Shown here: positions 1 to 54,703 of the stretch, one piece after another
Layout of the letters: every line of letters starts with the position of its first letter
How positions within the stretch are numbered: position 1 is the first letter of the stretch
Virus record (IMG/VR): IMGVR_UViG_3300013132_000031
Location: 32,001-96,000 of that record
Length of the DNA stretch: 64,000 nucleotides
Source: a virus
Direction: 5' to 3' (one strand)
Translations under genes and position numbers: made by a program
The notes under the pieces: generated by a model
Seen by the model: the letters and a program-made list of their open reading frames with translations, nothing else
Database searches by the model: none
Told to the model about the DNA's origin: nothing

Positions 1-509
1 TCAGCGTCAATCAACTTGTCCCGCATCAAGGTGTGCATGAGCCAGGATCTGTGTGATTTGGCATTGCGGTTCAAACACCCAATACGTCCCGAGCGTGGAT
101 GGTCTGCAAGATTTTGCCAATTTGGATATTGGTGATAAGGGATCATCAAGAAGGCTGGATAGTACACACAATTGGGCATATTGTCAAACCAGTGTTGAGC
201 ACGTGAACTCAACAGCACTATGCGAGATTTTGGAAAATACGGTTTTAACTCTTCAAGATAATTTTGTATCTGCTTGTTGCTTAGTCGTATTGGATCCCAG
301 GTAGCATCAATGAAAATCAGTCGAGCATGACTGATGCTGTCACGCAGTGCTCTGCACTTGGAAAAAAAGGCAGGGAAGTCAGCTTTTTTCAAACTGTGTA
401 AAAAAGGAGTGTTTCTAAAAATCACACTGTGCTGTGGCAGTGCCCGTCCTACCTGCCACGGGGTTTGGTCAAGTTCAGCTTGACTGTTGCTAAAGGAAAA
501 TACAAGCAT
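1..509 (-). CDS. GT10/fucosyltransferase-like family protein, 3' end truncated by window edge
   Basis: Manual translation from ATG at 509 is open to base 1 (MLVFSFSNSQ...GRIGCLNRNAKSHRSWLMHTL). The CLNR..+.HR motif matches the paralogue at 37523..38380 (MCLNNRRRSHR). Confidence 0.55.
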   Translation of the reverse strand, partial: MLVFSFSNSQAELDQTPWQVGRALPQHSVIFRNTPFLHSLKKADFPAFFSKCRALRDSISHARLIFIDATWDPIRLSNKQIQNYLEELKPYFPKSRIVLLSSRAQHWFDNMPNCVYYPAFLMIPYHQYPNWQNLADHPRSGRIGCLNRNAKSHRSWLMHTLMRDKLIDA

Positions 510-526
510 GAAATGCTGTCAATGAG

Positions 527-964
527 TTATTGGCACCAGGACGTTTTGGCTTCGCCGTAGTATTCTCTGGCATAGCCATTGGCGATCAGCATCTGTCGCA
601 GACTTTGGCCATTTAGAATGACATCTCCCAGTACACGACCACCGTACTTGTCCCAATCCATGAGAATGATCTGACGCTGGGTGGCCTGTGCAACAGCATT
701 TTTAGTGAAAGCGGAGGCGGCTTGCCCTCGAGCGTTTTCACTTTCGCATTGAGCTCGATGTCCTTTTTCTGGAGTATCAACGCCAAACACTCGGATTGAG
801 AGTTCAGGCTTGAGTGGGGCTGGTAGAAAGGGTGCGCGAAAGGCCACTGTGTCACCGTCTATGACTCTGGTGATTTCAGCGTCATAGGTCACACCAGGTC
901 GTTGTTTGGGTTGTGCTAGAGCCAATGTAGGCACTATGAGTAACAGCAGGAGTAATTTTTTCAT
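527..964 (-). CDS. Secreted thermonuclease (SNase family) with signal peptide
   Basis: RVIDGDT, IRVFGVDTPE, DKYGGRVLG and MLIANGYA SNase motifs. Start reassigned to MKKLLLLLLIVPTLALA (Sec signal) because the upstream extension overlaps the previous gene. Confidence 0.9.
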   Translation of the reverse strand: MKKLLLLLLIVPTLALAQPKQRPGVTYDAEITRVIDGDTVAFRAPFLPAPLKPELSIRVFGVDTPEKGHRAQCESENARGQAASAFTKNAVAQATQRQIILMDWDKYGGRVLGDVILNGQSLRQMLIANGYAREYYGEAKTSWCQ

Positions 965-968
965 AATG

Positions 969-1355
969 TTATCGAGGATATCCTGCAAAGGCTTTGACAG
1001 GACTGGTGGTGGCCACAAAATCAGGCTCCTCACTGTCTGGAGTTGAGACCGGGCGTTTGCCGCCAGGAGTGTCGGTCATGGTCAAAGCAGCGTCAATGAT
1101 TTTTTCAATGCCCCCATTGAATCCGGCTACCACAGCATGCTCACCAAATGCAGTTTCTGCAGACCATTCGGGCATGTGTGGGTTTACCCCATCCTTGCGA
1201 TATTCACTTCTGGCACGAGCCATGGCCACGCCCATGCGATATGTACGATAAGGATCGCTAGAACCCAACCCTGGCAACGTGTAGGTCCAACGCATGGGCT
1301 CTCGGCTCTCATCTGGCAACTCACGTTGCTCTGTGATAAATTCTTGAGCTCTCAT
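969..1355 (-). CDS. Hypothetical putative internal head protein (paralogue B)
   Basis: N-terminal MRAQEFITE resembles a T4 capsid-targeting sequence; C-terminal TTSPVKAFAGYPR is shared with the next gene. Confidence 0.6.
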   Translation of the reverse strand: MRAQEFITEQRELPDESREPMRWTYTLPGLGSSDPYRTYRMGVAMARARSEYRKDGVNPHMPEWSAETAFGEHAVVAGFNGGIEKIIDAALTMTDTPGGKRPVSTPDSEEPDFVATTSPVKAFAGYPR

Positions 1356-1723
1356 CTGGGATACCCTGCAAAGGCTTTGACAGGGCTGGTGGTGTGCACC
1401 GCAGGATGTTCTTGACTGCGCAGGTCACCGTGATTGATATCAACATAAGTGCTGCCAATGGCTTTGTATGCCATGTTTAATTTTTGTTGATCTTGCTTTG
1501 TGTATGCTGCTGCAATATTGTGGCGTCCTGCCCATGACTCGCCATCCAGGTCAGGAACAAATGTGCCGTCAGTTGAGGCCGCTGCCATCATCACACGGTT
1601 GAGTTCGTACACACGGTCAGCAAACTTGTTGTCGCGAAACTTGTTCAAGCCCACCGTGGCCTGATTCTGACGCTTGCTCATTTTGCCCACCGTGTCTTCG
1701 GTCACAAACTCAGTTGCTCTCAT
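1352..1723 (-). CDS. Hypothetical putative internal head protein (paralogue A)
   Basis: N-terminal MRATEFVTE, identical C-terminal TTSPVKAFAGYPR, ATGA overlap with the downstream gene. Confidence 0.6.
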   Translation of the reverse strand: MRATEFVTEDTVGKMSKRQNQATVGLNKFRDNKFADRVYELNRVMMAAASTDGTFVPDLDGESWAGRHNIAAAYTKQDQQKLNMAYKAIGSTYVDINHGDLRSQEHPAVHTTSPVKAFAGYPR

Positions 1724-1724
1724 A

Positions 1725-2072
1725 TTATGTGGCTGGAGTTGCTATACCATTACTGGCTGCTGTGGCACTTGATGCAGTGCCCAAGGCAGTGGCAGTAAAG
1801 CCGCCTGCACCTGTGAGAATGTTTAGGTAGTTGCCTGTACCCACATAGTATTGTGTCACAGTATTACCTGGCACAGCAATGGCATTGGCATACAAGTTGC
1901 CCACTGGTGTGGTCATGGTGGCGTTGGCAGGTGTGCCATTGACCTGTTGGTACGTCAACTGCACAGCACTGACTTGGAATGTTACATTGCTCAAAGTGGT
2001 GGCAAACTCTACCCGGTCAGTGGTCCATGCCACATTGCTGACTGCGTTGACTACTTGTACTGTTGTGGCCAT
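1725..2072 (-). CDS. Small Thr/Ala/Val-rich beta-type virion protein
   Basis: ORF packed in the operon with structural-protein composition. Confidence 0.55.
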   Translation of the reverse strand: MATTVQVVNAVSNVAWTTDRVEFATTLSNVTFQVSAVQLTYQQVNGTPANATMTTPVGNLYANAIAVPGNTVTQYYVGTGNYLNILTGAGGFTATALGTASSATAASNGIATPAT

Positions 2073-2245
2073 TATTTGTCACCTTGAGGTTTGGACACAA
2101 CTGGTTGAAGCAGTTCTCGTGCTTGATACATCACACCTGGGATTTCCACAGGTGTTTGTTTTACTGCAGGGATTGAGGGTGGCACATAGTTGTTGGCTTT
2201 GCGTTGTGCAATTTCTGCGGCTACTTCACTGTAAGGTCTCATCAT
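2072..2245 (-). CDS. Hypothetical protein
   Basis: Probable start at ATG 2245 downstream of AAGGGA; fills the gap between neighbours. Confidence 0.5.
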   Translation of the reverse strand: MMRPYSEVAAEIAQRKANNYVPPSIPAVKQTPVEIPGVMYQARELLQPVVSKPQGDK

Positions 2246-2250
2246 GATGG

Positions 2251-4653
2251 TTATCCCTTGTATGTTTTCCATTGGTTGGTGAGAGCAAAAATGCTTTCAC
2301 GAACTTTTTCCATGTCGCCGTCACCGTCTAAATCAGCTTGTTTTTTGCCGGCTGCTTTGGCTTTCAGTACATTGTGTGCAAACTTGTTGCCTTCTTCCAT
2401 GTCGGCTTCGTCAACTTCTTTTTTGGCTTCGCGGATGCCGGCCATTTCACGCATGCGCTGAATGCTTTCTTTCACGCTGTCTTCTTCGTTCATATCATCA
2501 GCAGCGTCTTTCATGCTTTCTTTTTTGTTGCCATCTTTGTCCATGTCCAAGAAGTCAGGCTTGGCTGCTTCTGCCAGTCCAGCCATTTCTATCATTCTAC
2601 GCAAGGCATCTTCGTCTTGTGTGTGAACTGCTGTGTTGGGAATGGTAGTTTGTCCATCACCAGCAACATCTGTCTTGGGCTTGTTAATGCCACCTGCGTA
2701 TTGCAGTGCATCACTGGAAGTTTGAGTGTTGGTAGGATAGTCTGGAGCATTTTCATCCACTGCTTCGGCCATGCCACTGTGCATGTCATGATCATGACCG
2801 CCCACACCAGCTGATTTCAGCATCATGGCCAATTTCAAGGCGTCTTCGTCTGTGGCTGTGACTGTGAGGCTTTTGCCGCCTTCGGTTGAGTTACTCATAT
2901 TGATGCTCATGCTTTCGGCAATCATGGTTTCCAATTCACGATTCATTGAGTCGTAAATGCCTTTGCCAAAACTCATGCCTCCAGATTTGGCTGGTTTGAC
3001 ATCTACTTTGCCTTTGTCTAATGTGGTACTGATTCTACCGGTGCTGGAACTGGTTGAAGTTTTTCCTGGTCCAGTTTGTGTAGTAGTCAATCTACCGTCT
3101 TTAGAGTTCTCATCAACTTCTTTCTTGTCGACCTTGTCTGGCAGGCCTTTGTGCTTGGTCTTGGCAAAGTCTTCAGTGTCTTTTGGCTTCATGGTCCGGG
3201 CAACTTTTTTCAGCTCTTTGCTGGCGCCTTTGATCTTTTCACCTTTTTGCATGGCATGTGCCATGCCCATGAACTTTTGTTGTTGCTTGCTGACAGCTTT
3301 TTCAGCAATGGGTTCTTGATCATTGCCTTGTGCTGCCATGTAATCACGTGCGGTGTCCAGGTAATCCATGGCCTTGTTGATCTTGCTCTGCACCCATTCT
3401 GGCAAGTTGTCGTCAGCGTCAATGATGCTTTGCAGTTCGTTGGCTGCTGATTCAATGGTGTCAATGTCATCAAGAGCCATGTCGCCTTCGCGATCGTATT
3501 CGCCTTTTTCTGCTGGATCGTCTTCACCTTCCCGGGTCATCAACTTGGATTTTCTCTGAAAAACTTTTGCCTTGCTGCTGACATTTTTGGAACCTTCAGG
3601 ACGACCAGCTTTGGTCTGCTTTTGTTTTTTGTTGCCTTCGTCATCGGTTTCAGGATCCACACTGAGACCTTGATCATCTGTACGACGTGTCACAACACGG
3701 CCTGTGGCTGTGTGTTTGATGTCATGCTTGTGACCACGTTCAACTGAACCAACCTTGGGTGCATCTTTTCTTGGTGACTTGTAGTCAAATGCGTTGTCTT
3801 CATCCATCTCAGCGTCACGACCTCGACCGCCACCCAGGGCACTGCGCATGGCTTCGGCAGCCACATCGCCTAGCATTTCGTCAACTTCTTTTTTGGCGCC
3901 GGCAATCTTGTCGGCAAAAGTGATTTTGTCGGCAGGTGGTGCCAGTTTGGCAAATGACTTTTGCTTGGCAGTCATCGGAGCACCGGCTTCAGGCAAGTTG
4001 GGTTCTGCATGGGTGCCACGTGCGGCTTTGATGCTGCCTTTGAGACTGGAGATTTGATCTCTTGATGGCATGCCTTTTCTTGGTCCACGATCTAATATGT
4101 TATTTTTTATTCCTGAGCGACCAATACCTTGTCCTCTTTTTAACGGGTCAGTACTGGGAAATTCGCCTCCACCTATTTTGCGTTTTCTACCAGCATAGTC
4201 ATCGGGTTTTGGATTATAGTAGGCATCATCCATATCAGGACCGTACGTGTAGTCTGGTGGTTCCTGGGTGTACAACTTGTCTTTGTACTTGGGGGCGCGG
4301 TACTTGGCTGCTTCTGTGGTTTTTTGTTCAGGTTTCTTGTCTGTTTCCTTGACGGGTCTGCCTTGCTCAGCAGCCTTGCGCTTATAGGCTGGAATGTTGA
4401 CGGGGTTAGTAGGGTCCAGATCCTTTAAACGATCTTCGATACCTTCATCGTACTTGTCGTATTTTTTTCTAATGGGATCAAGAGCTTTGCCTTCGCGACC
4501 AGCCTTGGCCAATGCTTCCATGCCTTGTTTGCCATACTTTTCATAGCCCTTGGCAGCACGACTCATGTCACGCTCATTTAGTTGTTGATGTGTGACTTCG
4601 GGTGTGGCACGAATGCTGTCTAGTTTTTTATTTAAATCGTAAAAGAAACTCAT
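2251..4653 (-). CDS. Large charged modular protein, putative prohead-processed internal protein (DUF3008-like segment, DxDxDG loops)
   Basis: 800 aa, K/E/D-rich; AVSKQQQKFMG...DFAKTKHKGLP resembles DUF3008; DMDKDG and DLDGDG loops; many hydrophobic-x-E sites. Confidence 0.65.
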   Translation of the reverse strand: MSFFYDLNKKLDSIRATPEVTHQQLNERDMSRAAKGYEKYGKQGMEALAKAGREGKALDPIRKKYDKYDEGIEDRLKDLDPTNPVNIPAYKRKAAEQGRPVKETDKKPEQKTTEAAKYRAPKYKDKLYTQEPPDYTYGPDMDDAYYNPKPDDYAGRKRKIGGGEFPSTDPLKRGQGIGRSGIKNNILDRGPRKGMPSRDQISSLKGSIKAARGTHAEPNLPEAGAPMTAKQKSFAKLAPPADKITFADKIAGAKKEVDEMLGDVAAEAMRSALGGGRGRDAEMDEDNAFDYKSPRKDAPKVGSVERGHKHDIKHTATGRVVTRRTDDQGLSVDPETDDEGNKKQKQTKAGRPEGSKNVSSKAKVFQRKSKLMTREGEDDPAEKGEYDREGDMALDDIDTIESAANELQSIIDADDNLPEWVQSKINKAMDYLDTARDYMAAQGNDQEPIAEKAVSKQQQKFMGMAHAMQKGEKIKGASKELKKVARTMKPKDTEDFAKTKHKGLPDKVDKKEVDENSKDGRLTTTQTGPGKTSTSSSTGRISTTLDKGKVDVKPAKSGGMSFGKGIYDSMNRELETMIAESMSINMSNSTEGGKSLTVTATDEDALKLAMMLKSAGVGGHDHDMHSGMAEAVDENAPDYPTNTQTSSDALQYAGGINKPKTDVAGDGQTTIPNTAVHTQDEDALRRMIEMAGLAEAAKPDFLDMDKDGNKKESMKDAADDMNEEDSVKESIQRMREMAGIREAKKEVDEADMEEGNKFAHNVLKAKAAGKKQADLDGDGDMEKVRESIFALTNQWKTYKG

Positions 4654-4659
4654 TTTGTA

Positions 4660-5268
4660 TTATCCTCGGGGTTGTGCGCCAGTGCTTGGCTTGGGTGGAC
4701 GTTTGATATTGCTCATTGGACTCTTGTTGCCCGTTGGAATATCATTTGTGGTTCGGGCTGCAGGTGTTCGACCACCAGCCACTGTGAAATCTGTACGGTA
4801 TGCGTTTTTCAACACAGCATGATCGTATGGACCGGTAGCATAGTCTTTCTTCAGGGCTCGCTGTTCAGCATCGAGCGCAGGATAATCAGTGTCAGTCAAC
4901 AGGTCTTTGTTTTCTGCTTCAACCTTGTTGGCCTCGTCAACCAGGCCGTCAACATAATTTTGTGTTTGCATCACAATGTGATTGGGATCAAAGCCCAACA
5001 ATTGTGCCAGTTGTTTAATCTGTGGCTCAATGGCTGGATACTTGAAACTTACATCAAACATGGACACACTGTCATTGGGATTGTTGGGAAAGTCAGTCAG
5101 CACTTTTTGTATGGGTGTGGTTTTTACGTCGCCCATGCTCACTGGATCAAATTGATCCAGTTTTTGTTTGAGATCACGAATCAACTCCGCAGACGGTTTG
5201 CCCAGAAGTTTAATACGATAATCGTAAGTGCGCTCACTTTCGGCTAGGTATTGTGCAAATTTTTTCAT
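4660..5268 (-). CDS. Hypothetical putative head protein
   Basis: N-terminal MKKFAQYLAE resembles the T4 internal-protein targeting sequence; late promoter at 5286-5291. Confidence 0.6.
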   Translation of the reverse strand: MKKFAQYLAESERTYDYRIKLLGKPSAELIRDLKQKLDQFDPVSMGDVKTTPIQKVLTDFPNNPNDSVSMFDVSFKYPAIEPQIKQLAQLLGFDPNHIVMQTQNYVDGLVDEANKVEAENKDLLTDTDYPALDAEQRALKKDYATGPYDHAVLKNAYRTDFTVAGGRTPAARTTNDIPTGNKSPMSNIKRPPKPSTGAQPRG

Positions 5269-31800: not shown

Positions 31801-33305
31801 CTTGTAACATTGCCAGTCACACTCAAACTGGGCAACACTCCCACATTGGTAGCCACCACACCAGACAGTTGTGAACCGTCACCAACGAACACTCCGCCTA
31901 CTATGCTGCCAAGTGCAGTGATTTTGCCTGCTGTGATAATGTTGCCACCAGTGACATTGGCCAAAGTAGTGATTGCGCTGACACTGTTTAGTGCTGACAT
32001 CACATTGCCTGACAAGCTCAACGCCACAGCATTGACCGCGCCGCTGGTCAAGGTGCCTGTAATATTGGCCGAAGCAGCACTCACTGCACCTGCTGTGATG
32101 ACATTACCACCAGTGACATTGCCTGTGACCACTGCACTCACAGCACTTACCGCACTGAGTGCTATGACATTGCCACCAATTACATTGCCCACTGCACTGA
32201 CATTGCCCGAAGCTTGGACTAGGCCTATGGCAGACAAGTTGGTGGCTGTGAGTCCGGTGTTGGCAAACACTGCCACATTGGGTGTGCCATTAACACTCAC
32301 ACTGATATTGCCGTTGGCACCATTGATCACAAGGTTGCTGTCGCCCAGTGCAAAAGATCCGCTGGACACATTGCTTATGCCTTGCACTGCAAAAGATCCG
32401 CCCGCTGGATTGGTCAAAATAAGACTGTCTACGTTGGACGTGATTATTGAGTCGCCCAGTCTAATGGTACTGCCAGTCAACCAAATGTTAGCCCACCGCT
32501 GAGTGCTGGATCCAAGACTGTACACATTGTTGGCTGCAGGCAGCACATTGCCTGCAAATGTAACGCTGGTTGTGGCAAACACTGCACGGTTGCTGAGTCC
32601 ACCCACACTCACTGCTATGTTGCCGCCTGGGGTCACAATGTTTACTGTGCTGTTGCCGCTGACCAGATTGGATGCTGTGGTCAAAATTCCAGTCAACAAT
32701 GAACCATTGCCAAGAAAATAATTGCCTACTACATTGCCTGTGGCACTTACAGAACCTGCAGTGACCAAATTACTACCGGTTATATTACCTGAGGCAATCA
32801 TTTGCCCACTGGTGCTGATATTGCCGCCAGTGACTGTGCCGCTGACACTGACTCCAGTGGTACTAAACACTGCCACGTTGCTGGTGCCAGCAACGCTGAC
32901 AGTTACATTACCGTTGGCGCTGACAATTTTTACATTTGATGTACCTGAATTTATACTGCTACCAGCAGTGGTTACATTGGTAAGTCCAGCACCGTTGCCC
33001 ACAAAATATTGGGCATAAACAGTGTCGATGCGTTGAGCAGGAGCGCCAATGTCATACACAGCGTCGATGCTGGGCATGATAGAACTATTTGCTTGAATAT
33101 TGCCAATTCCATTAGCTCGGAGTATCAGGTTGTTGTTGGTACCAGTGACTGTGATGGTATTACCGGTGATGACCACATTGCTATCCACTGGGCCCGCAGC
33201 GAATATTTGGGTGAAATTGTTATTGACAGCTTCAAAAGCTGTTCTTAATGGTTCACCAGTGCCATCGTTGGCAGCGGCGCCTACATCTATTATATTTTGT
33301 GCCAT
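28896..33305 (-). CDS. Long fibre protein with gp9/gp10-type N-terminal anchor and dozens of SATGNITGGN repeats
   Basis: N-terminal IDVGAAANDGTGEPLRTAF..NNNF; C-terminal AIALSIALG. Confidence 0.75.
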   Translation of the reverse strand: MAQNIIDVGAAANDGTGEPLRTAFEAVNNNFTQIFAAGPVDSNVVITGNTITVTGTNNNLILRANGIGNIQANSSIMPSIDAVYDIGAPAQRIDTVYAQYFVGNGAGLTNVTTAGSSINSGTSNVKIVSANGNVTVSVAGTSNVAVFSTTGVSVSGTVTGGNISTSGQMIASGNITGSNLVTAGSVSATGNVVGNYFLGNGSLLTGILTTASNLVSGNSTVNIVTPGGNIAVSVGGLSNRAVFATTSVTFAGNVLPAANNVYSLGSSTQRWANIWLTGSTIRLGDSIITSNVDSLILTNPAGGSFAVQGISNVSSGSFALGDSNLVINGANGNISVSVNGTPNVAVFANTGLTATNLSAIGLVQASGNVSAVGNVIGGNVIALSAVSAVSAVVTGNVTGGNVITAGAVSAASANITGTLTSGAVNAVALSLSGNVMSALNSVSAITTLANVTGGNIITAGKITALGSIVGGVFVGDGSQLSGVVATNVGVLPSLSVTGNVTSGNLNSLGQISAVGNITGGNLQATGLSLSGNVLTPLNVTGNIVSNNLAVINDITGANNFVTNYIQANVLVVSVSLSASGNVIGGNVNSYAAVSATGNVTGGNVRTAGLITATGTITGGNVLTGGIISATGAITGANITGDNILTAGLISAAGNVTGGNVIAVSLVSAAAVSATGNVNSGNLRTAGLISAVGNIIGGNIQGGANVNAVTHTGFTVSVSGNISGSNVIAADTINAQFFTGTSTLMTGNVSGSNVNANLGIYAQSASVSGNVTGGNAVISGAVSAASMSATGALLAGNITTGGFVAAAGNVSGGNLITGAALSAAFGVVIGNIVGGNLITTGLVTATGNITGSNVIAISAVSAASMVATGNITGGNLITTGTIAVASISATGNITSANLVATDRVTAVGNVIGGNIITAGIVSATGNVAANAVNAANLSLTGNVLSVLNSTNNITTSADITGNNLIGNGTLVTNVTAVNVGVLSSISITGNTQSGNVRTAGQVSATGNITGGNLVAVLAVSSDSVSTATITATGNITGGNVSAVANVSAAIVNATGNVIGGNISTLGQITAAANVTGANFLTAGQVSATGNVTGGNIVTAGQVSVTGNVLTNGIISATGNIFSSGNIQAHTFIGNVTGSLTLTGANSQVLYNQLGSIGSGAGLVFDYAANALTIAGAITTTSGGDLTVAGKTTVTGNISTVIGNIDGGNILATTLLSSAGNIVGANLVTGGLITAVGNITGGNLNAASEVVATGNIVGGNIVTAGLITATGNVTGGNLVTAALMQSGTVSATGNITGGNIQTAGLVTATGNVTGGNIITSALVEGLTISATGNVIGGNVSTAGLITATGNITGGNINTAGSITATGNIVGSVINATSQLQGVAISVTGNITGGNVISNGAISATGNITGGNLRAAGLSLSGNVLSALNMTTNITTTGNITANNIAATTSINIAGAVAATVDDAIALSIALG

Positions 33306-49236: not shown

Positions 49237-49262
49237 CCTATAAGTAGAACTATATTTATAGG
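49237..49262. promoter_or_regulatory. Pseudo-palindromic pair of divergent late promoters (TATAAGTA on +, TATAAATA on -)
   Basis: CCTATAAGTA-GAACTA-TATTTATAGG. Confidence 0.7.
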
Positions 49263-49268
49263 TCAATT

Positions 49269-50111
49269 ATGCTCCAAACTTCTAACCCTTTGCAACAGTT
49301 TTTCCGCCAACCTGCCATCTACATACGGTTGCCCAGCAATGGGCAGCACTGGCCACCGGGCAGTTTGGACATGCCGGCCAACTGTGAACTGCCAGTGTAT
49401 CCCATGACTGCCATTGACGAAATCACCTATCGCACACCTGATGCGCTGTTCAATGGACAAAGCACAATCAGTGTGATTCAAAGCTGTGTGCCAAATATCA
49501 AAAATGCCTGGCACATGCCGGGAATTGATCTCAACAGTGTGCTGATTGCCATTAGAGTGGCCAGCTACGGTCACAACATGGAAGTGGACAGCACTTGTCC
49601 CAGTTGCGAGACCATGGGAGAGTATGTGACTGATCTCAGACGCATACTAGATCAAATGGACTCAGCCGACTACAATCTTCCAATTCAGTACGGCGATCTT
49701 GAAATTTATTTCAAGCCATTGAATTATCAGCAACAAAATCAAAGCAGCTTGGATCAGTTTGAACAACAAAAAATTCTAGCTGCTGTGCCCGAAAGTGATC
49801 TCACTGACGATGAAAAAATTGCACGTATGAATCAAGCCCTGGTGCGAATCACAGAAATGACCATGGAGTTGATCAGTCTGAGTATTGCACTGATAAAAAC
49901 TCCCACTGCCACTGTGACTGCCACGCAACACATTGCAGAATTTGTCAGCAACTGTGATCGAAAACTGTACCATGCCATACGTGATCGCATGGTCGATCTG
50001 CGTAAAAGCACTGAGATTCCCAACATGCACATAGAGTGCAATGAGTGTAATCACAAGTACGAACAACAGATGACCTTGGACATGGTAAGTTTTTTCGACA
50101 AAGCCTCCTAA
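49269..50111 (+). CDS. gp26: Baseplate hub assembly protein (gp26-like)
   Basis: YIRLPS..PMTAIDE..LIAIR.AS.G..CPSC...CNECNH..SFF. Confidence 0.8.
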   Translation: MLQTSNPLQQFFRQPAIYIRLPSNGQHWPPGSLDMPANCELPVYPMTAIDEITYRTPDALFNGQSTISVIQSCVPNIKNAWHMPGIDLNSVLIAIRVASYGHNMEVDSTCPSCETMGEYVTDLRRILDQMDSADYNLPIQYGDLEIYFKPLNYQQQNQSSLDQFEQQKILAAVPESDLTDDEKIARMNQALVRITEMTMELISLSIALIKTPTATVTATQHIAEFVSNCDRKLYHAIRDRMVDLRKSTEIPNMHIECNECNHKYEQQMTLDMVSFFDKAS

Positions 50112-50137: not shown

Positions 50138-50326
50138 ATGGTTGAAACTTTGGACAAGGAGGCTAACCAGATTCGCTCAGAAAGTTTCAAATTGGCCTGG
50201 TACATGCGAGGCGGCATAACCTACGAACAAGTCATGCAGTTGAGTTCTGTTGAGCGCGGCATGATCAATGCATTGGCCAAAGAAAATATTGAAACCACAA
50301 AGAAAACCAACTTACCATGGTTCTAA
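50138..50326 (+). CDS. gp51-like hub assembly chaperone; probably also the -1 frameshift extension of gp26
   Basis: WYMRGGITYEQVMQLS..ER motif; frame is open back to the slippery site at 50090. Confidence 0.65.
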   Translation: MVETLDKEANQIRSESFKLAWYMRGGITYEQVMQLSSVERGMINALAKENIETTKKTNLPWF

Positions 50327-50823
50327 ATCAAGAAACTGTTGCTGCTGACATCTTAGCCTGGAGTGAAACTTTTGTGGAAGTCCCGCATCCTGCACTAGGT
50401 GGGTGGCCGCCTTGCCCGTTTGCAAGGCAAGCACGCCTTAACCAAACCATACAAGTTTTGACTGGCACAGATCCTTACTTTGATCTAAAGAACCGAGCAC
50501 GTTGGGGCATGGGCCGCTATGAGGTGGTTGTGTATGCATATGATCCTGAGGACTGGCCTTATGCTCGTTTTCACTCTGCCATTGAATCAGCCAACCAAGA
50601 ATTTTTGTTAGCACGTGATATCCTGGCTCTGGAAGATCATCCTGAGGATGTGGAAGATGTCAACGGTGTGATAATGAATCAAGGCCGGTATGCTTTGGTG
50701 CTGGTACAAAGTCTTTCAAAGTTAAACACAGCCGCCCGACAAATAGGCACCAAAGGATTTTATCATGCCTGGCCTGAAGAATACTTGACTGGGCTGTTTA
50801 GACATAGACAGGATCCCAGATGA
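50317..50823 (+). CDS. DUF1415-like protein
   Basis: W...FV..PCPFAR..DHP..LVQ motif pattern. Confidence 0.55.
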   Translation: MVLNQETVAADILAWSETFVEVPHPALGGWPPCPFARQARLNQTIQVLTGTDPYFDLKNRARWGMGRYEVVVYAYDPEDWPYARFHSAIESANQEFLLARDILALEDHPEDVEDVNGVIMNQGRYALVLVQSLSKLNTAARQIGTKGFYHAWPEEYLTGLFRHRQDPR

Positions 50824-51257
50824 GCAGTTATCAGTTTGCCAGAATTGACCTCAGCAAAACCAACTACAGCATAGGCATAGAATGGATGTACATAACCCGT
50901 CCAGATATTCCTGCACTCAATGCCATCTATCGTAATTACTGCGTGTACAAAAAGTTTTCAAGCGTGATGCCCATATTTGACAGCAGATACACCGACCCCA
51001 TGACTGATGTGATTGGATATTATGACCAGGCCCAGCTGGTAGCGTTTTCACTGATCAAACGCTACGACGAACACAATGCACTGTGCGATCAATTTGCATG
51101 GACTTATCACAATCCTAAAATGCGCATGGGTATAGAAACAATGAAAGCCGAGTGTGCCATATACCGAGCACGAGGATTTAAGTACTTGTATCTAGAACAA
51201 GCACACTTGTACAAAAGTGAAATAGACGGATTTGAAATATTAGGACCACTGGAATAA
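50820..51257 (+). CDS. Stand-alone ATE_C/Bpt-like aminoacyl-tRNA-protein transferase domain (GNAT fold)
   Basis: IYRNYC, LVAFS, MG..MKAE...R.RGFKYLYL..YK..GFE parallel the C-terminal half of ATE1/Bpt. Confidence 0.6.
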   Translation: MSSYQFARIDLSKTNYSIGIEWMYITRPDIPALNAIYRNYCVYKKFSSVMPIFDSRYTDPMTDVIGYYDQAQLVAFSLIKRYDEHNALCDQFAWTYHNPKMRMGIETMKAECAIYRARGFKYLYLEQAHLYKSEIDGFEILGPLE

Positions 51258-51260
51258 AAT

Positions 51261-52403
51261 ATGTATAGTGTATATCAACATTGGGATCCACTCAAGGTAT
51301 GTGTTGTGGGACGTAGTTACCCACCTGAGTTTTATTCATGGATCAAAATTCCACATGTACGATCGTTGTTTGAAAAAATAGCAATTGAAACTGAAGAAGA
51401 CTATCAAAAAATTATAAAAAAACTTCAAGAATTTGGCGTCGAAGTATTAAGACCTCAATTGTCCATCAACACCGTTGATAATCAAAAATATTTTCCGCCA
51501 CCTATGTGTCCAAGAGATAATATGATTATGTTAGGACAAACATTTTATCATGCTGATCCGTTTAATTTTAAACAATTTTACAAAGACGTTAAAGATACAT
51601 CCTGGCCTCCATGCCAATCTTTAGAAGAATTTGCAACATTGCCACTGCTTATACAAGATGAATGCAATAATGTTCACAAATTGTCAGATCACCTATTGTC
51701 AACCTATCGTAAAACGTATGAAAATTATGATCACGTATTTGCTCAAATCAGCCAACAAGGCAATGAACTAAAGAAAACTGGTATTTCCAAAGAGCCTGGC
51801 GCTTTTATCAGCCGGATCGGCAGAGACTTGTATTTTGGCACAGAAAATTATACCCAAGATCAAACTCAGTATCAAATAAATATTGACGCTGAATTTCCTA
51901 ACACACGTAATCACATTGTGAACACTGGAGGGCACGGGGATGGTGTATATTGTCCTGTTTGTCCAGGTTTAATAATCAGTTTGCGCGACGTTCCAACATA
52001 CAAAAAAACTTTCCCAGACTGGGAGGTTGTGTACTTGCCAGGACAGAGTTGGGCTAAAGTACAACCTTTTTTACGTCTCAAAGCAAAAAATCAAGGCAGA
52101 TGGTGGATACCAGGGTTTGAACATGATCAAGCAGTGATTGACACTGTTGAAACTTGGTTGGGACATTGGGTCGGATATGTTGAGGAAACGGTGTTTGATG
52201 TCAATATGTTGATTGTTGATCCAAAAAATGTCATAGTGTTTAATTATAACAAACAGGTATTTGATGCACTACATCGTTACGGTATTACTCCGCATATTGT
52301 GCCGTTTAGACACAGATATTTTTGGGATGGCGGCATACACTGTGTCACACTGGATTTACATCGAGAAGGTGTCATGCAAGATTATTTTCCACAAAGAGGT
52401 TAA
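51261..52403 (+). CDS. Amidinotransferase (glycine/inosamine-phosphate amidinotransferase, pentein family)
   Basis: HWDPLKVCVVG, PPMCPRD, GHGDG, FDVNML, terminal DGGIHCVTLDLHR with the catalytic Cys. Confidence 0.88.
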   Translation: MYSVYQHWDPLKVCVVGRSYPPEFYSWIKIPHVRSLFEKIAIETEEDYQKIIKKLQEFGVEVLRPQLSINTVDNQKYFPPPMCPRDNMIMLGQTFYHADPFNFKQFYKDVKDTSWPPCQSLEEFATLPLLIQDECNNVHKLSDHLLSTYRKTYENYDHVFAQISQQGNELKKTGISKEPGAFISRIGRDLYFGTENYTQDQTQYQINIDAEFPNTRNHIVNTGGHGDGVYCPVCPGLIISLRDVPTYKKTFPDWEVVYLPGQSWAKVQPFLRLKAKNQGRWWIPGFEHDQAVIDTVETWLGHWVGYVEETVFDVNMLIVDPKNVIVFNYNKQVFDALHRYGITPHIVPFRHRYFWDGGIHCVTLDLHREGVMQDYFPQRG

Positions 52404-52404
52404 C

Positions 52405-52746
52405 ATGGATTTATACACAATTTGGGCAGACAAAGAAGGAGACATCTCAGACATTGACTGGGTCAACGGTATGAAGAGTTTCTTTGATCATCTAGTAGAA
52501 GAGGGCCGTATGGAAACCTATAGAATCACACGTTGCAAGATGGGATTCCGTAGCATAGCAGACATGCCCGAATGGATGATCATCATGGAATTCCAGAACA
52601 TGGCACAAATGGATCAAGCCTTTAAAAGAGTAGCACCACTCAAGGGCGATCTAGAAACCAAACATCGAAGTTTCAATCAGTTTGTTTCAGGAAACATTCA
52701 ACATGCATTGTTTAGAGATTGGCCAGATACCAACTTGGATGATTGA
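52405..52746 (+). CDS. DUF6614-like dimeric alpha+beta barrel protein
   Basis: YTIW..YRITRCKMGF..PEW.I.MEF..MAQMD.AF..H..ALFRDWPD; GAGGT RBS before ATG 52405. Confidence 0.6.
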   Translation: MDLYTIWADKEGDISDIDWVNGMKSFFDHLVEEGRMETYRITRCKMGFRSIADMPEWMIIMEFQNMAQMDQAFKRVAPLKGDLETKHRSFNQFVSGNIQHALFRDWPDTNLDD

Positions 52747-52770
52747 TTGTATACTGTAAAAAGAGCTTGT

Positions 52771-53808
52771 ATGAATCAAAAAATATGTGTTACTAGTTGG
52801 CGCAGCATGGGATGCACGTTTATTGACTGGAGTATTCATTTTTTATCTGGACAAACTAGATATTACAATGCCAGTGCAAATGATTTTATAGAGTTAAGCC
52901 AAAATCCAATCAACAACATAAACGCCCACGGGCACAATAAAAATCATCCACTGGGATATGCTGAAACAAAAAAATGTTTGGAAATTTTTGACAATCTAAC
53001 AGACCAGGCCATTTGTTCAATGTATGCTGCCTGGTTGCCGCTTGATAGTGGCGCCAATATTATCAACGTTGGTATTGAACAACTGCCTGAGTCCAATATG
53101 ATGACACAAGTTCAACAAACCATTGCTGACGACTACAACAAGATCTTTGAACTATGTTATAAAACTAATACAAAGATAATATATGTTGCACCAGATGATA
53201 GAATGCACCTTTATCATCAATCCATTAGATCTCACAGTAGATTCATGACCAGGCCAGACCAACCAAATTCACCTAAAGAACTCAGTGATGAAATGCAGCA
53301 AGTGTTCTTTCAAAACAGTTTATCTCGTTGGCAAGATTTAAATTTAACCAACGTTTGGGACATCAGAGAACGCATGGCATTGGATAGCAGGCCATTTGCT
53401 GCCCACAAAAGTGACACCAAAATCCTATATCCCCATCATTGGGTAAGTTGTTTGAGTTTGTGGACCCGAACAGAAGAATCTATAGCAAACATTTTAAAAT
53501 ATCTTGACTTAGAAATTGATGCCAAAAGATTAGAACAATGGTTGCCTATCTGCAGACAATGGCAAAAAATGCAAACAGACATACTTGAGTTTTGTTACAA
53601 TCAGCCACACATTGTTGATGCTATTGTTAATAATTTGGATTTCAGTATTGACCTAACATTTGATCAAGAAGTTATAATTCAGCATTGCTTGATTTATCAA
53701 CATGGACTGAATCTAAAAACTTGGCAATTAAAAAAATTCCCATCAAACACACAGGAACTACACAAATTGTTAGAGCCTAACATACACCCAGTTCCGGTGA
53801 TTTATTAA
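52771..53808 (+). CDS. Hypothetical sulfotransferase-like protein (paralogue of 59348..60238)
   Basis: N-terminal MGCTFIDW, NAH motif and C-terminal FPSNTQELHKLL shared with the paralogue; function uncertain. Confidence 0.45.
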   Translation: MNQKICVTSWRSMGCTFIDWSIHFLSGQTRYYNASANDFIELSQNPINNINAHGHNKNHPLGYAETKKCLEIFDNLTDQAICSMYAAWLPLDSGANIINVGIEQLPESNMMTQVQQTIADDYNKIFELCYKTNTKIIYVAPDDRMHLYHQSIRSHSRFMTRPDQPNSPKELSDEMQQVFFQNSLSRWQDLNLTNVWDIRERMALDSRPFAAHKSDTKILYPHHWVSCLSLWTRTEESIANILKYLDLEIDAKRLEQWLPICRQWQKMQTDILEFCYNQPHIVDAIVNNLDFSIDLTFDQEVIIQHCLIYQHGLNLKTWQLKKFPSNTQELHKLLEPNIHPVPVIY

Positions 53809-54270
53809 AGATCTCTAAGAGATCTGTTGATTTCGCTGTGCTCATCAACGTATTGTTTTTTCTAGCGCGAAGCGACCAAGTATTCATGTAGATTGTTTTA
53901 GTCAGACGGAACCGTTTTGCGCGGTTCCATCTGTGTCTTCATGTGAGTTGAATCAGCCAAGACATTGGAAGTAGGTAATTTTTTATACACCGTATGCTAA
54001 AGGACTCTGTGCTTTTCCTTCCTACCACGATACGCTAGTGCGCTCTAAACCTCGTTCCTAGTGTTTAGATGTTTATAGCCGGTGTCTTCGTATGCTAACA
54101 TTCATACTATATCAATGCGTTGGCCCTATTGTTCTAGCCTCAAACTCGCTTCCCCTTCAGGATAGTGGGATTTACCCACGGGAGTGCATCAATATGTCAC
54201 GTGTCCGGTTTATTCCCCGGTTTTTCCACAGCGGTATTGCAAACTGGCCCGCCAACCTTGGGTGTTAGTT
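53808..54270 (-). ncRNA. Large structured non-coding RNA, probably ROOL-like
   Basis: 390 nt ORF-free gap with at least 7 hairpins and a long-range helix; G-U pairing favours the - strand. The core ACAGAGUCCUUUA..GGUGUAU..UUCCAAUGUCUUGGCUGAU resembles ROOL as recalled from memory, not searched. Confidence 0.6.
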
Positions 54271-54703
54271 GATTTGTAATTTTATCTTTGATGTGTGAGC
54301 CATGCACACGTACTTGTATATGGCCGTTGTAATAATCTGTTGATTCCAATACTCGCCTTGCAAATTGTTCTCTTGCCTCAATGTAACTGCATTCAGACTT
54401 GCTTTTGCAATAGTAAAGTATTTCTCTGGAGAAGTTTTTGGTGCCTAAAGTGATTACGTCTGCGGTTAATTCTGGGCTTGACCCGTAGTACTCACGCCAG
54501 TCTGAATCGACTTTGGTTCGTATCTTTTTCCGCTTTTTGATGCCGTTCTTTTGTTTTACTGTCTTGTACGTTGTTTTTGAAAATTTCGCTAATTTTTTGC
54601 CTATGTACCGGCGTCCAGTGAGATTATTTGTGATCTGATAAACAAATCCCACACATTCTTCGGGCAGTGTCTCAACTGGGGTGTCTTGATAAAGCCATGT
54701 CAT
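54197..54703 (-). CDS. Small GIY-YIG endonuclease (T4 EndoII/DenA-like size)
   Basis: GFVYQITN..YIGKK, YYGSS, FSREIL, E..EQ, YYNG. Confidence 0.85.
   Translation of the reverse strand: MTWLYQDTPVETLPEECVGFVYQITNNLTGRRYIGKKLAKFSKTTYKTVKQKNGIKKRKKIRTKVDSDWREYYGSSPELTADVITLGTKNFSREILYYCKSKSECSYIEAREQFARRVLESTDYYNGHIQVRVHGSHIKDKITNQLTPKVGGPVCNTAVEKPGNKPDT

Follow-up and report, generated by a model that had tools for sequence, protein, structure and literature searches.

A phage gene pair combining a lone ATE_C-type transferase lobe with a putative P422/AglA-like protein, and its facultative amidinotransferases

Four tightly packed genes that follow a gp26-type baseplate hub gene in a virus from the IMG/VR collection raise the question of which of them belong together and what they could do jointly. 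The genes, whose products we call A168, B145, C380 and D113 (the initial letters denote the families), lie in a stretch of 64,000 nucleotides that is referred to here as the window (positions 32,001 to 96,000 of record IMGVR_UViG_3300013132_000031). A preliminary description of the window had treated them as a four-gene cassette consisting of a DUF1415-like protein, a stand-alone ATE/Bpt-type transferase domain, an amidinotransferase and a DUF6614-like protein, and had proposed an undescribed phage pathway. From the comparison of related loci, our reading is that A and B are the selected unit, that D joined it in this lineage and that amidinotransferases such as C380 are facultative and mobile. 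By analogy with the argolaphos enzymes AglC and AglA, we give a probability of about 45% to a two-gene module in which B145 would perform a tRNA-dependent transfer and A168 an oxidation, with amidinotransferases as optional additions.

Two sets of 80 loci each were examined, one seeded with B (76–94% identity) and the other with C380 (47–76%), together with a distant set of 19 loci that comprises short and long forms of B at 27–42% identity. In the B-seeded set A adjoins B in all 80 loci; the gene order is A-B-D in 67 of them, A-B-C-D in 10 and A-B-C in one, and two truncated loci show A-B. The amidinotransferase occupies the B/D junction in 11 of the 80 loci and is missing at this spot in 67, so the four-gene cassette does not hold as a unit, its fixed part being A and B with, in this lineage, D. 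Across the same loci B, at the identity given above, and D (74–96%) are more conserved than the neighboring hub protein, which ranges from 41 to 91% and is mostly 50–60% identical. In the distant set an A-family gene adjoins B in 14 of the 19 loci, arranged as A then B, B then A or convergently, usually with gp26 nearby, and in one of these loci (L084) the order is NrdB-A-B-amidinotransferase-MazG-glutaredoxin-PhoH, which is not a baseplate context. D is missing from the distant A-B loci, with the exception of L085. The genes do co-occur, in related as well as in distant loci, as the preliminary description had expected if they shared a pathway. Since A and B stay adjacent across distant, rearranged loci, descent alone is not a sufficient explanation.

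Amidinotransferases, for their part, recur at two junctions of the module and in the distant lineage of L084. The C-seeded set contains the orders A-B-C-D (29 loci), A-C-B-D (10) and partial or variant arrangements (7). A complete relative of 345 kb (G006) carries gp26-A-amidinotransferase (409 amino acids)-B-amidinotransferase (323 amino acids)-D (locus L182, G006:C1:203000-207500, 753-4236), with a third copy about 120 kb from the module, and another complete genome (G001) has three paralogs, one of them 7 kb from B. All 3 genomes of ≥95% completeness that carry A-B also encode an amidinotransferase. In our reading, chance alone would not explain how often amidinotransferases have entered the module and at how many positions. 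The idea that C380 merely represents a moron inserted at a hot spot was also considered, and it is softened by the A-C-B-D loci and the double insertion in G006. More broadly, the genes might share no pathway, the region being a hot spot of accessory genes after the baseplate hub in which A, B and D stay together by vertical descent only and the tight spacing reflects mere phage genome economy. The content of the slot does vary: C is present in 11 of the 80 loci, an unrelated gene of 245 amino acids lies on the opposite strand between B and D in three (L033, 5435-6172, minus strand; L049; L051), and E353, the gene after D113, is variable. Moreover, the guanine-cytosine (GC) content of C380 (0.375) and E353 (0.362) is far below that of A168 (0.473; window average, 0.463), and paralogs of the amidinotransferase also occur far from the module. 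We nevertheless regard a mere hot spot as unlikely, given that the adjacency of A and B persists at 27–42% identity, in three orientations and outside the baseplate context, that different amidinotransferase paralogs entered two junctions and also the distant lineage, and that B and D are more constrained than the hub protein.

The next element of the argument is the nature of B145. The collection clustered at 90% identity holds 2,833 B clusters, on contigs of up to ~383 kb, and when the representatives at 50% identity were searched exhaustively with phmmer, 117 relatives were returned, which are either short (139–153 amino acids) or long (225–255 amino acids). B145 stays under the Pfam gathering cut-off for ATE_C (PF04377) and so failed as a member of that family by this measure. 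Nine of ten long forms match ATE_C, six above the cut-off of 25 (25.5–33.8 bits) and three below it, while Pfam matched ATE_N neither in B145 nor in the ten long forms tested. A family profile of 42 B members recovered the ATE1 proteins of K. lactis and S. cerevisiae (7wfx/7wg1) with an E-value of 1e-7; with a profile of short forms only, ATE1 fills the top five places (E 0.004–0.025) and the next match is an unrelated protein at 0.19. A relative of 149 amino acids is, in addition, labelled arginyltransferase by the IMG pipeline. The AlphaFold2 (AF2) model of B145, with a predicted local distance difference test score (pLDDT) of 95.8, is a single GNAT lobe that begins at the first strand of the fold, and it superposes on the C-terminal lobes of MprF (Z 15.0), L-PGS (14.4), FemX (14.1) and Sbb17/Sba18 (13.0); in every two-lobed enzyme matched, the alignment falls on the C-terminal lobe.

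We then compared the residues of B145 with those of K. lactis Ate1 (klAte1), whose roles are known from mutagenesis (PMC9351520), by means of the hidden Markov model (HMM) alignment, in which the chain numbering equals the paper numbering plus 4. Trp94, equivalent to Trp260 on the tRNA side, is kept in 41 of the 42 family members; Thr107, equivalent to Ser273 of the Arg pocket, is Ser or Thr in 32; Glu111, equivalent to Glu277, the acid required for the Arg moiety, is kept in 39; and Tyr131 and Lys132, equivalent to the inferred active-site pair Tyr303-Lys304, are kept in 38 each. The Glu277 position is a Gln in the Leu-specific Bpt, and the pocket of klAte1 that accepts acidic N-termini (Arg80, Tyr25, Tyr87) lies in ATE_N (PMC9351520). 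Taken together, the profiles, the residues and the model are best explained if B145 is the tRNA-side, catalytic lobe of an ATE/Bpt-type transferase that has dispensed with the acceptor-holding lobe. The ATE_C-type lobe of 145 amino acids without a Cys-rich N-terminal half, as first described, is thereby upheld, through profiles, relatives and conserved residues and not through Pfam on the protein itself; with these profiles and ATE residues, B145 does not look like an ordinary acetyl-CoA GNAT. Neither a blastn search with the region nor tblastn searches with B145 and one long form matched any cultured phage, so that the module is known only from metagenomes. A single-protein scan of genome contigs found B only on NZ_JBBAKG010000003.1 and NZ_JBBAKG010000001.1, at 73–76% identity on both (148 and 183 kb; metagenome-assembled genome (MAG) Haliscomenobacter sp. 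EUL_031). Both contigs probably derive from giant phages and were binned with a Bacteroidota genome, and the label is at most a weak hint to the host.

The partner, A168, is more difficult to place. It scores 16.7 bits with DUF6875 (PF21780), under the cut-off of 24.5 (E 0.008, residues 11–48). In the family of 27 sequences, 14 match DUF6875 (best E 8.7e-4) and two match DUF1415 (PF07209; best E 0.0048), of which A168 itself gives no match at E <= 1. The nearest named ESM Atlas clusters are DUF1415/DUF6875, at 0.91–0.95 (0.93–0.95 for those named DUF1415). The earlier label of a DUF1415-like protein is thus weakly supported: the Atlas neighbors and the two relatives agree with it, and the DUF6875 score of A168 remains below cut-off. 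Invariant in the family are Trp15, Pro32-Cys33-Pro34, Ala36, Ala39 and His108-Pro109, as well as Glu113, Asn121, Gln131, Tyr149 and Trp152; position 37 is basic in 26 of the 27 sequences. Cys33 belongs to a P-C-P-[FY]-A motif that is present in all 27, and the weak DUF6875 matches of the family cover exactly this motif. Members of DUF6875 have been described as thiolate-ligated heme enzymes and renamed cytochrome P422, in which helices sandwich a four-stranded sheet and an RxGxVCP motif contains the ligand Cys (bioRxiv 10.64898/2025.12.11.692455, a preprint of December 2025).

The AF2 model of A168 (pLDDT 94.2) is a small alpha/beta protein for which Foldseek gave no match below 1e-3. In a full VIA-align search AglA of Streptomyces monomycini stood out as the one outlier (Z 7.2, 151 residues aligned; the next entry is at 4.0), and a second VIA-align look returned five AglA entries at Z 7.0–7.7 with 150–151 of the 168 residues aligned at a root-mean-square deviation of 3.8, although models without a match commonly have best scores of Z 7–8. 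AglA is the prototype of the YqcI/YcgG enzymes, in which a heme ligated by the thiolate of Cys44 serves to N-hydroxylate the guanidine of an arginyl conjugate (PMC12866846); judged from position only, Cys33 of A168 may be the equivalent of Cys44. PF08892 (YqcI/YcgG) was not matched in the phage record at E <= 0.01, and a profile of the family (A2) run against PDB sequences at E <= 10 did not recover AglA. PF07209 gave no match in the phage record either, a negative that carries no information, as control genomes gave none as well. On the motif and the model, A168 most plausibly belongs to the thiolate-heme "sandwich" superfamily formed by P422/DUF6875, DUF1415 and YqcI/YcgG-AglA, and the chances that it is a heme-thiolate protein are, in our estimate, about two in three. 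The preliminary description had seen in this PCPF-containing protein a possible partner of the transferase. The constant association with the transferase gene agrees with that, and a thiolate-heme protein is a better reading of A168 than a substitute for ATE_N. G006 also encodes a second A paralog of 173 amino acids (locus L183, G006:C1:257500-262500, 21-5001; hhalign probability 99.4%), which keeps PPCPYAR and is without the EDHP motif; the run of genes around it, consisting of a radical SAM enzyme, an unassigned gene of 365 amino acids, this paralog, a carbamoyltransferase and an AMP-binding enzyme, resembles a small biosynthetic island.

The two remaining proteins are easier to assign. C380 matches the solved amidinotransferases HsvA (2.8e-9), StrB1 (5.1e-8), SxtG (4.6e-7) and AGAT (1.3e-5), and nine diverse phage homologs all have Arg85-Asp86, His225-x-Asp227, Asp313 and His360-Cys361, which confirms by sequence the amidinotransferase call, with an intact Cys-His-Asp triad. 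The middle third of the protein (about residues 100–200) is hypervariable among the phage paralogs. C380 is the only protein of the four with cultured or deposited relatives, in Synechococcus phage S-SCSM2R and Marine virus AG-345-D19. Both are without A or B, and their amidinotransferase genes stand in glycan or tailoring contexts, the one of AG-345-D19 being flanked by a carbamoyltransferase gene. In several relatives (L106-L111 and L163) the amidinotransferase match spans ~1,650 nucleotides instead of ~1,120; some 530 nucleotides split an N-terminal piece from the rest, for which an intron, intein or inserted element is a possible explanation. D113 matches DUF6614 with 79.4 bits (cut-off 25; E 2.7e-22; residues 1–110 on positions 1–108 of the 116 in the model) and its ESM Atlas clusters are 100% DUF6614, so this call was right as well. 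In this phage lineage no other gene of the module is as strongly conserved as D113. Its matches to coproheme decarboxylase and chlorite dismutase among PDB sequences are non-significant (E 0.42) and were not used. The only mention of DUF6614 that we found in the literature is a preprint in which an open reading frame (ORF) of another phage, predicted to be DUF6614, counteracts Druantia type I.

Building on what is shown above, namely how the families are related, which residues are conserved and how the genes are linked, we propose the following scheme. B145 would take the aminoacyl group from a host aminoacyl-tRNA and join it by an amide bond to the amine of an acceptor other than the classical Asp/Glu N-terminus of a protein. 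Arginine or another basic residue is the most likely group, because the acidic pocket residue of klAte1, Glu277, is kept. A168 would use host redox partners to oxidize either the product or the acceptor, with N-hydroxylation as the probable reaction; alternatively, it may dock on B145 and supply the missing acceptor side, a role as partner subunit that the lack of an acceptor lobe in B145 suggests. Amidinotransferases such as C380 would use arginine as a donor to build guanidino groups on that scaffold or to extend them, and DUF6614 would be a lineage-specific accessory. Since the second A gene of G006 lies among radical SAM, carbamoyltransferase and adenylating enzymes, a small molecule, a glycan or another decoration is a likelier target than a protein N-terminus. 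We infer, in this scheme, that A168 binds heme and that B145 depends on tRNA, and likewise which amino acid is moved, in which order the steps follow and what is modified. More tentatively, and with appreciably less confidence, A168 and B145 could form one two-component enzyme, in which a single-lobe transferase borrows its acceptor side from, or passes its product to, a miniature thiolate-heme oxygenase and which, together with the amidinotransferases, would equip a macromolecule or metabolite relevant to the phage with an arginyl, N-hydroxy-guanidino or similar group; glycans or proteins of the virion, DNA and small molecules directed at the host would be candidate targets.

Several observations weigh against a joint pathway of A and B, and the VIA-align caveat given above is one of them. 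With respect to linkage, the other 34 of the 80 C-seeded loci have none of A, B and D within 4 kb, most modules are without an amidinotransferase, and the B/D junction takes the unrelated gene of 245 amino acids as well, so that an insertion hot spot accounts for part of the pattern. Besides, one lineage with long-form B is without A and includes a complete phage genome of 158 kb. Because that phage has B without A, and because no A-B fusion was found, the partnership of the two is not obligatory; fusions of A to larger proteins were not found either, which is weak evidence. As for B145, the protein alone gave no match in Pfam (E <= 1), PHROG, NCBIfam or PDB sequences, and its link to ATE rests on profiles and ~75 aligned residues. 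The equivalent of klAte1 Ser255 is variable and that of Tyr289 is mostly Leu, as in the Leu-specific Bpt, and the model fits VipF (Z 14.8) and N-myristoyltransferases (~13–14) no less well than the tRNA-dependent enzymes. A168, in turn, is below the cut-off of every Pfam family, the Trp-binding substrate motifs of P422 (SBR1-3) are not evident in it, and no 2Fe-2S ferredoxin is encoded in three related genomes. As a separate observation on the long-form-B lineage without an A neighbor (L086-L089, L092), a conserved ORF of 77–103 amino acids, with QLNPPIPVETPLGEGWA in the stretch that its copies share, lies just before B in four of its five loci (L086-L089).

B145 could, on the other hand, be a minimal N-degron enzyme that adds Arg or Leu to host or phage N-termini, for ClpS/ClpAP or for altered function, with A168 as a heme- or redox-sensing regulator and the amidinotransferase unrelated. 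ATE1 is indeed the closest sequence family and its active-site Tyr-Lys pair is conserved in B145, hemin is known to regulate ATE1 by inhibiting it (PMC9351520), and the module adjoins structural genes. Even so, we consider it improbable: the entire ATE_N with its Arg80, Tyr25 and Tyr87 pocket is missing, in the long forms likewise, which leaves B145 as only the tRNA-side lobe of enzymes that normally have two, and the recurring amidinotransferases and the A paralog in a tailoring cluster point to small-molecule chemistry. The preliminary description had thought of rewired host N-degron proteolysis and of prohead protease cleavage after Glu as a source of substrates. After such a cleavage Glu is the last residue of the piece released, and no N-terminal Glu arises; with this and the missing ATE_N pocket, N-degron rewiring is the weaker reading and tailoring of the AglC/AglA type fits better. 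The pathway idea as such stays reasonable, for a unit different from the one first drawn. Least likely of all is that B145 is an acyl-CoA-dependent GNAT and A168 a non-heme thiol/redox protein or structural partner, as the fit of VipF and the N-myristoyltransferases, a weak Acetyltransf_6 match in one B relative and the sub-threshold scores of A168 would allow, since the profiles recover only ATE1 among solved proteins, the Pfam matches of the relatives are to ATE_C, the ATE-specific Trp, Glu and Tyr-Lys are conserved, the usual Q/R-x-x-G-x-G/A CoA-binding loop was not seen by eye around Gly104, and Acetyltransf_6 is itself the FemAB-type, tRNA-dependent branch annotated in the argolaphos cluster (PMC8976061).

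With respect to its source, the window comes from a 108-kb IMG/VR record with a CheckV completeness of 31%, and because complete genomes of 342–353 kb are among its close relatives, we assign it to a giant T4-like phage. The features around the module are collected in Table 1. Consecutive genes are packed as first described: A168 and B145 overlap by four nucleotides (ATGA), B145 and C380 are separated by three nucleotides and C380 and D113 by one, while the 62-amino-acid ORF that precedes A168 overlaps it by 10. That the module directly follows gp26 and gp51 is borne out for the gp26-type hub, by Pfam and PHROG, and not for the ORF called gp51, which has no family match.

Table 1. Co-oriented features from the hub gene to the end of the run (positions in the window)
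Feature	Position	Strand	Basis
gp26-type baseplate hub gene	49269..50111	+	Pfam T4_baseplate PF12322 4.7e-13; PHROG 150 baseplate hub 1.7e-13
Small conserved ORF (62 amino acids)	50138..50326	+	46–100% identity in related loci
A168, putative member of the DUF1415/DUF6875 (cytochrome P422)/AglA-like "sandwich" superfamily	50317..50823	+	Profile, ESM Atlas, structure match
B145, predicted single-lobe GNAT of ATE_C type without ATE_N	50820..51257	+	Family profiles, residues, fold
C380, amidinotransferase (pentein fold)	51261..52403	+	Solved homologs, catalytic triad
D113, DUF6614	52405..52746	+	Pfam PF20319
E353, variable AT-rich gene after D113	52747..53808	+	Family unassigned in library scans
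Terminator-like hairpin closing the run	53809..53825	+	Consensus scan only; 7-bp stem directly after E353 stop

The 62-amino-acid ORF always lies between gp26 and A in related loci, and Pfam and PHROG scans gave no match for it. D113 has its true start at the ATG listed, within a longer ORF started by TTG. E353 gave no family match in four libraries, occurs in only about 10 of the 80 B-seeded loci (about one in eight) at 28–58% identity and is probably outside the module; its similarity to the gene after the AG-345-D19 amidinotransferase is not convincing. A T4-type late promoter, TATAAATA, was not found on the plus strand before gp26. The only nearby copy of TATAAATA is on the minus strand (49253-49260), just upstream of a divergent gene for a tape-measure-like protein of 899 amino acids that is only ~40 nucleotides apart from gp26. 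Further downstream, on the minus strand, lies a gene for a SegE-type GIY-YIG homing endonuclease (54197-54703; Pfam 3.7e-32), whose best PHROG is labelled "NAD synthetase" and is apparently mislabelled. No tRNA genes were found in the window, and no PADLOC defence model was matched.

Non-ribosomal aminoacyl-tRNA transferases are few, namely ATE1/Bpt, L/F-transferase, the Fem proteins, MprF and some natural-product ligases. In the literature searched we found no paper that describes an aminoacyl-tRNA transferase as a conserved phage function, nor one on a phage ATE-type enzyme or an A-B gene pair. Here, the B145 family is abundant, more conserved than the adjacent baseplate hub protein and reduced to the bare catalytic lobe, and it neighbors a protein whose putative superfamily obtained its first structures and activities only in 2025. 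If the proposed module is real, phages would divert charged host tRNA into a tailoring reaction, the pair would be a minimal model system for tRNA-dependent amide ligation, and the DUF1415-like branch of the P422/AglA superfamily would gain its first biological setting; the two-component enzyme, if true, would mean that viruses possess a new tRNA-dependent modification chemistry. Owing to its small size, the module could be tested directly by co-expression.

Finally, we compared the module with known systems. With ATE1/Bpt (ATE_N PF04376 plus ATE_C PF04377), B145 shares the ATE_C signature and the equivalents of Trp260, Glu277 and Tyr303-Lys304; it differs in its size (145 amino acids versus ~230–260 for Bpt and >500 for ATE1), in having no ATE_N, Cys cluster or pocket for acidic N-termini, and in being phage-borne and located beside a P422/AglA-like gene. 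FemX, MprF/aaPGS and Sbb17/Sba18 receive B145 on their C-terminal lobe (Z 13–15 over 136–142 residues) and carry a second GNAT-like lobe that aids acceptor binding, of which B145 has none. A168 has in common with P422/DUF1415 the weak HMM matches over the Cys-Pro motif and the described architecture of a four-stranded sheet, whereas its motif, [FL]xGxxPCP[FY]A, departs from RxGxVCP in the upstream Arg and the Gly spacing, and it is shorter than the P422 members surveyed (168 versus 180–300 amino acids). Like AGAT, StrB1, HsvA and SxtG, C380 contains the Cys-His-Asp triad and the catalytic block at the C-terminal end; it is distinguished by its hypervariable middle third and by the presence of several paralogs per phage genome. 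AglA is the sole clear structural match of A168, yet no sequence similarity is detectable, to it or to PF08892, and A168 is ~75 residues shorter; unlike in the argolaphos cluster, no phosphonate genes lie nearby in the phage. In Streptomyces monomycini AMPn-Arg is made from aminomethylphosphonate and arginine with ArgRS, tRNA and AglC, after which AglA hydroxylates the guanidine (PMC12866846), and the argolaphos cluster holds GNAT-type tRNA-dependent ligases beside a YqcI/YcgG gene (PMC8976061). AglC and AglA both act on the arginyl group, and the gene of a GNAT-type amide ligase dependent on tRNA lies close to that of a small Cys-ligated heme "sandwich" protein, the pairing proposed for B and A; by this analogy they are the best precedent for the A-B module.

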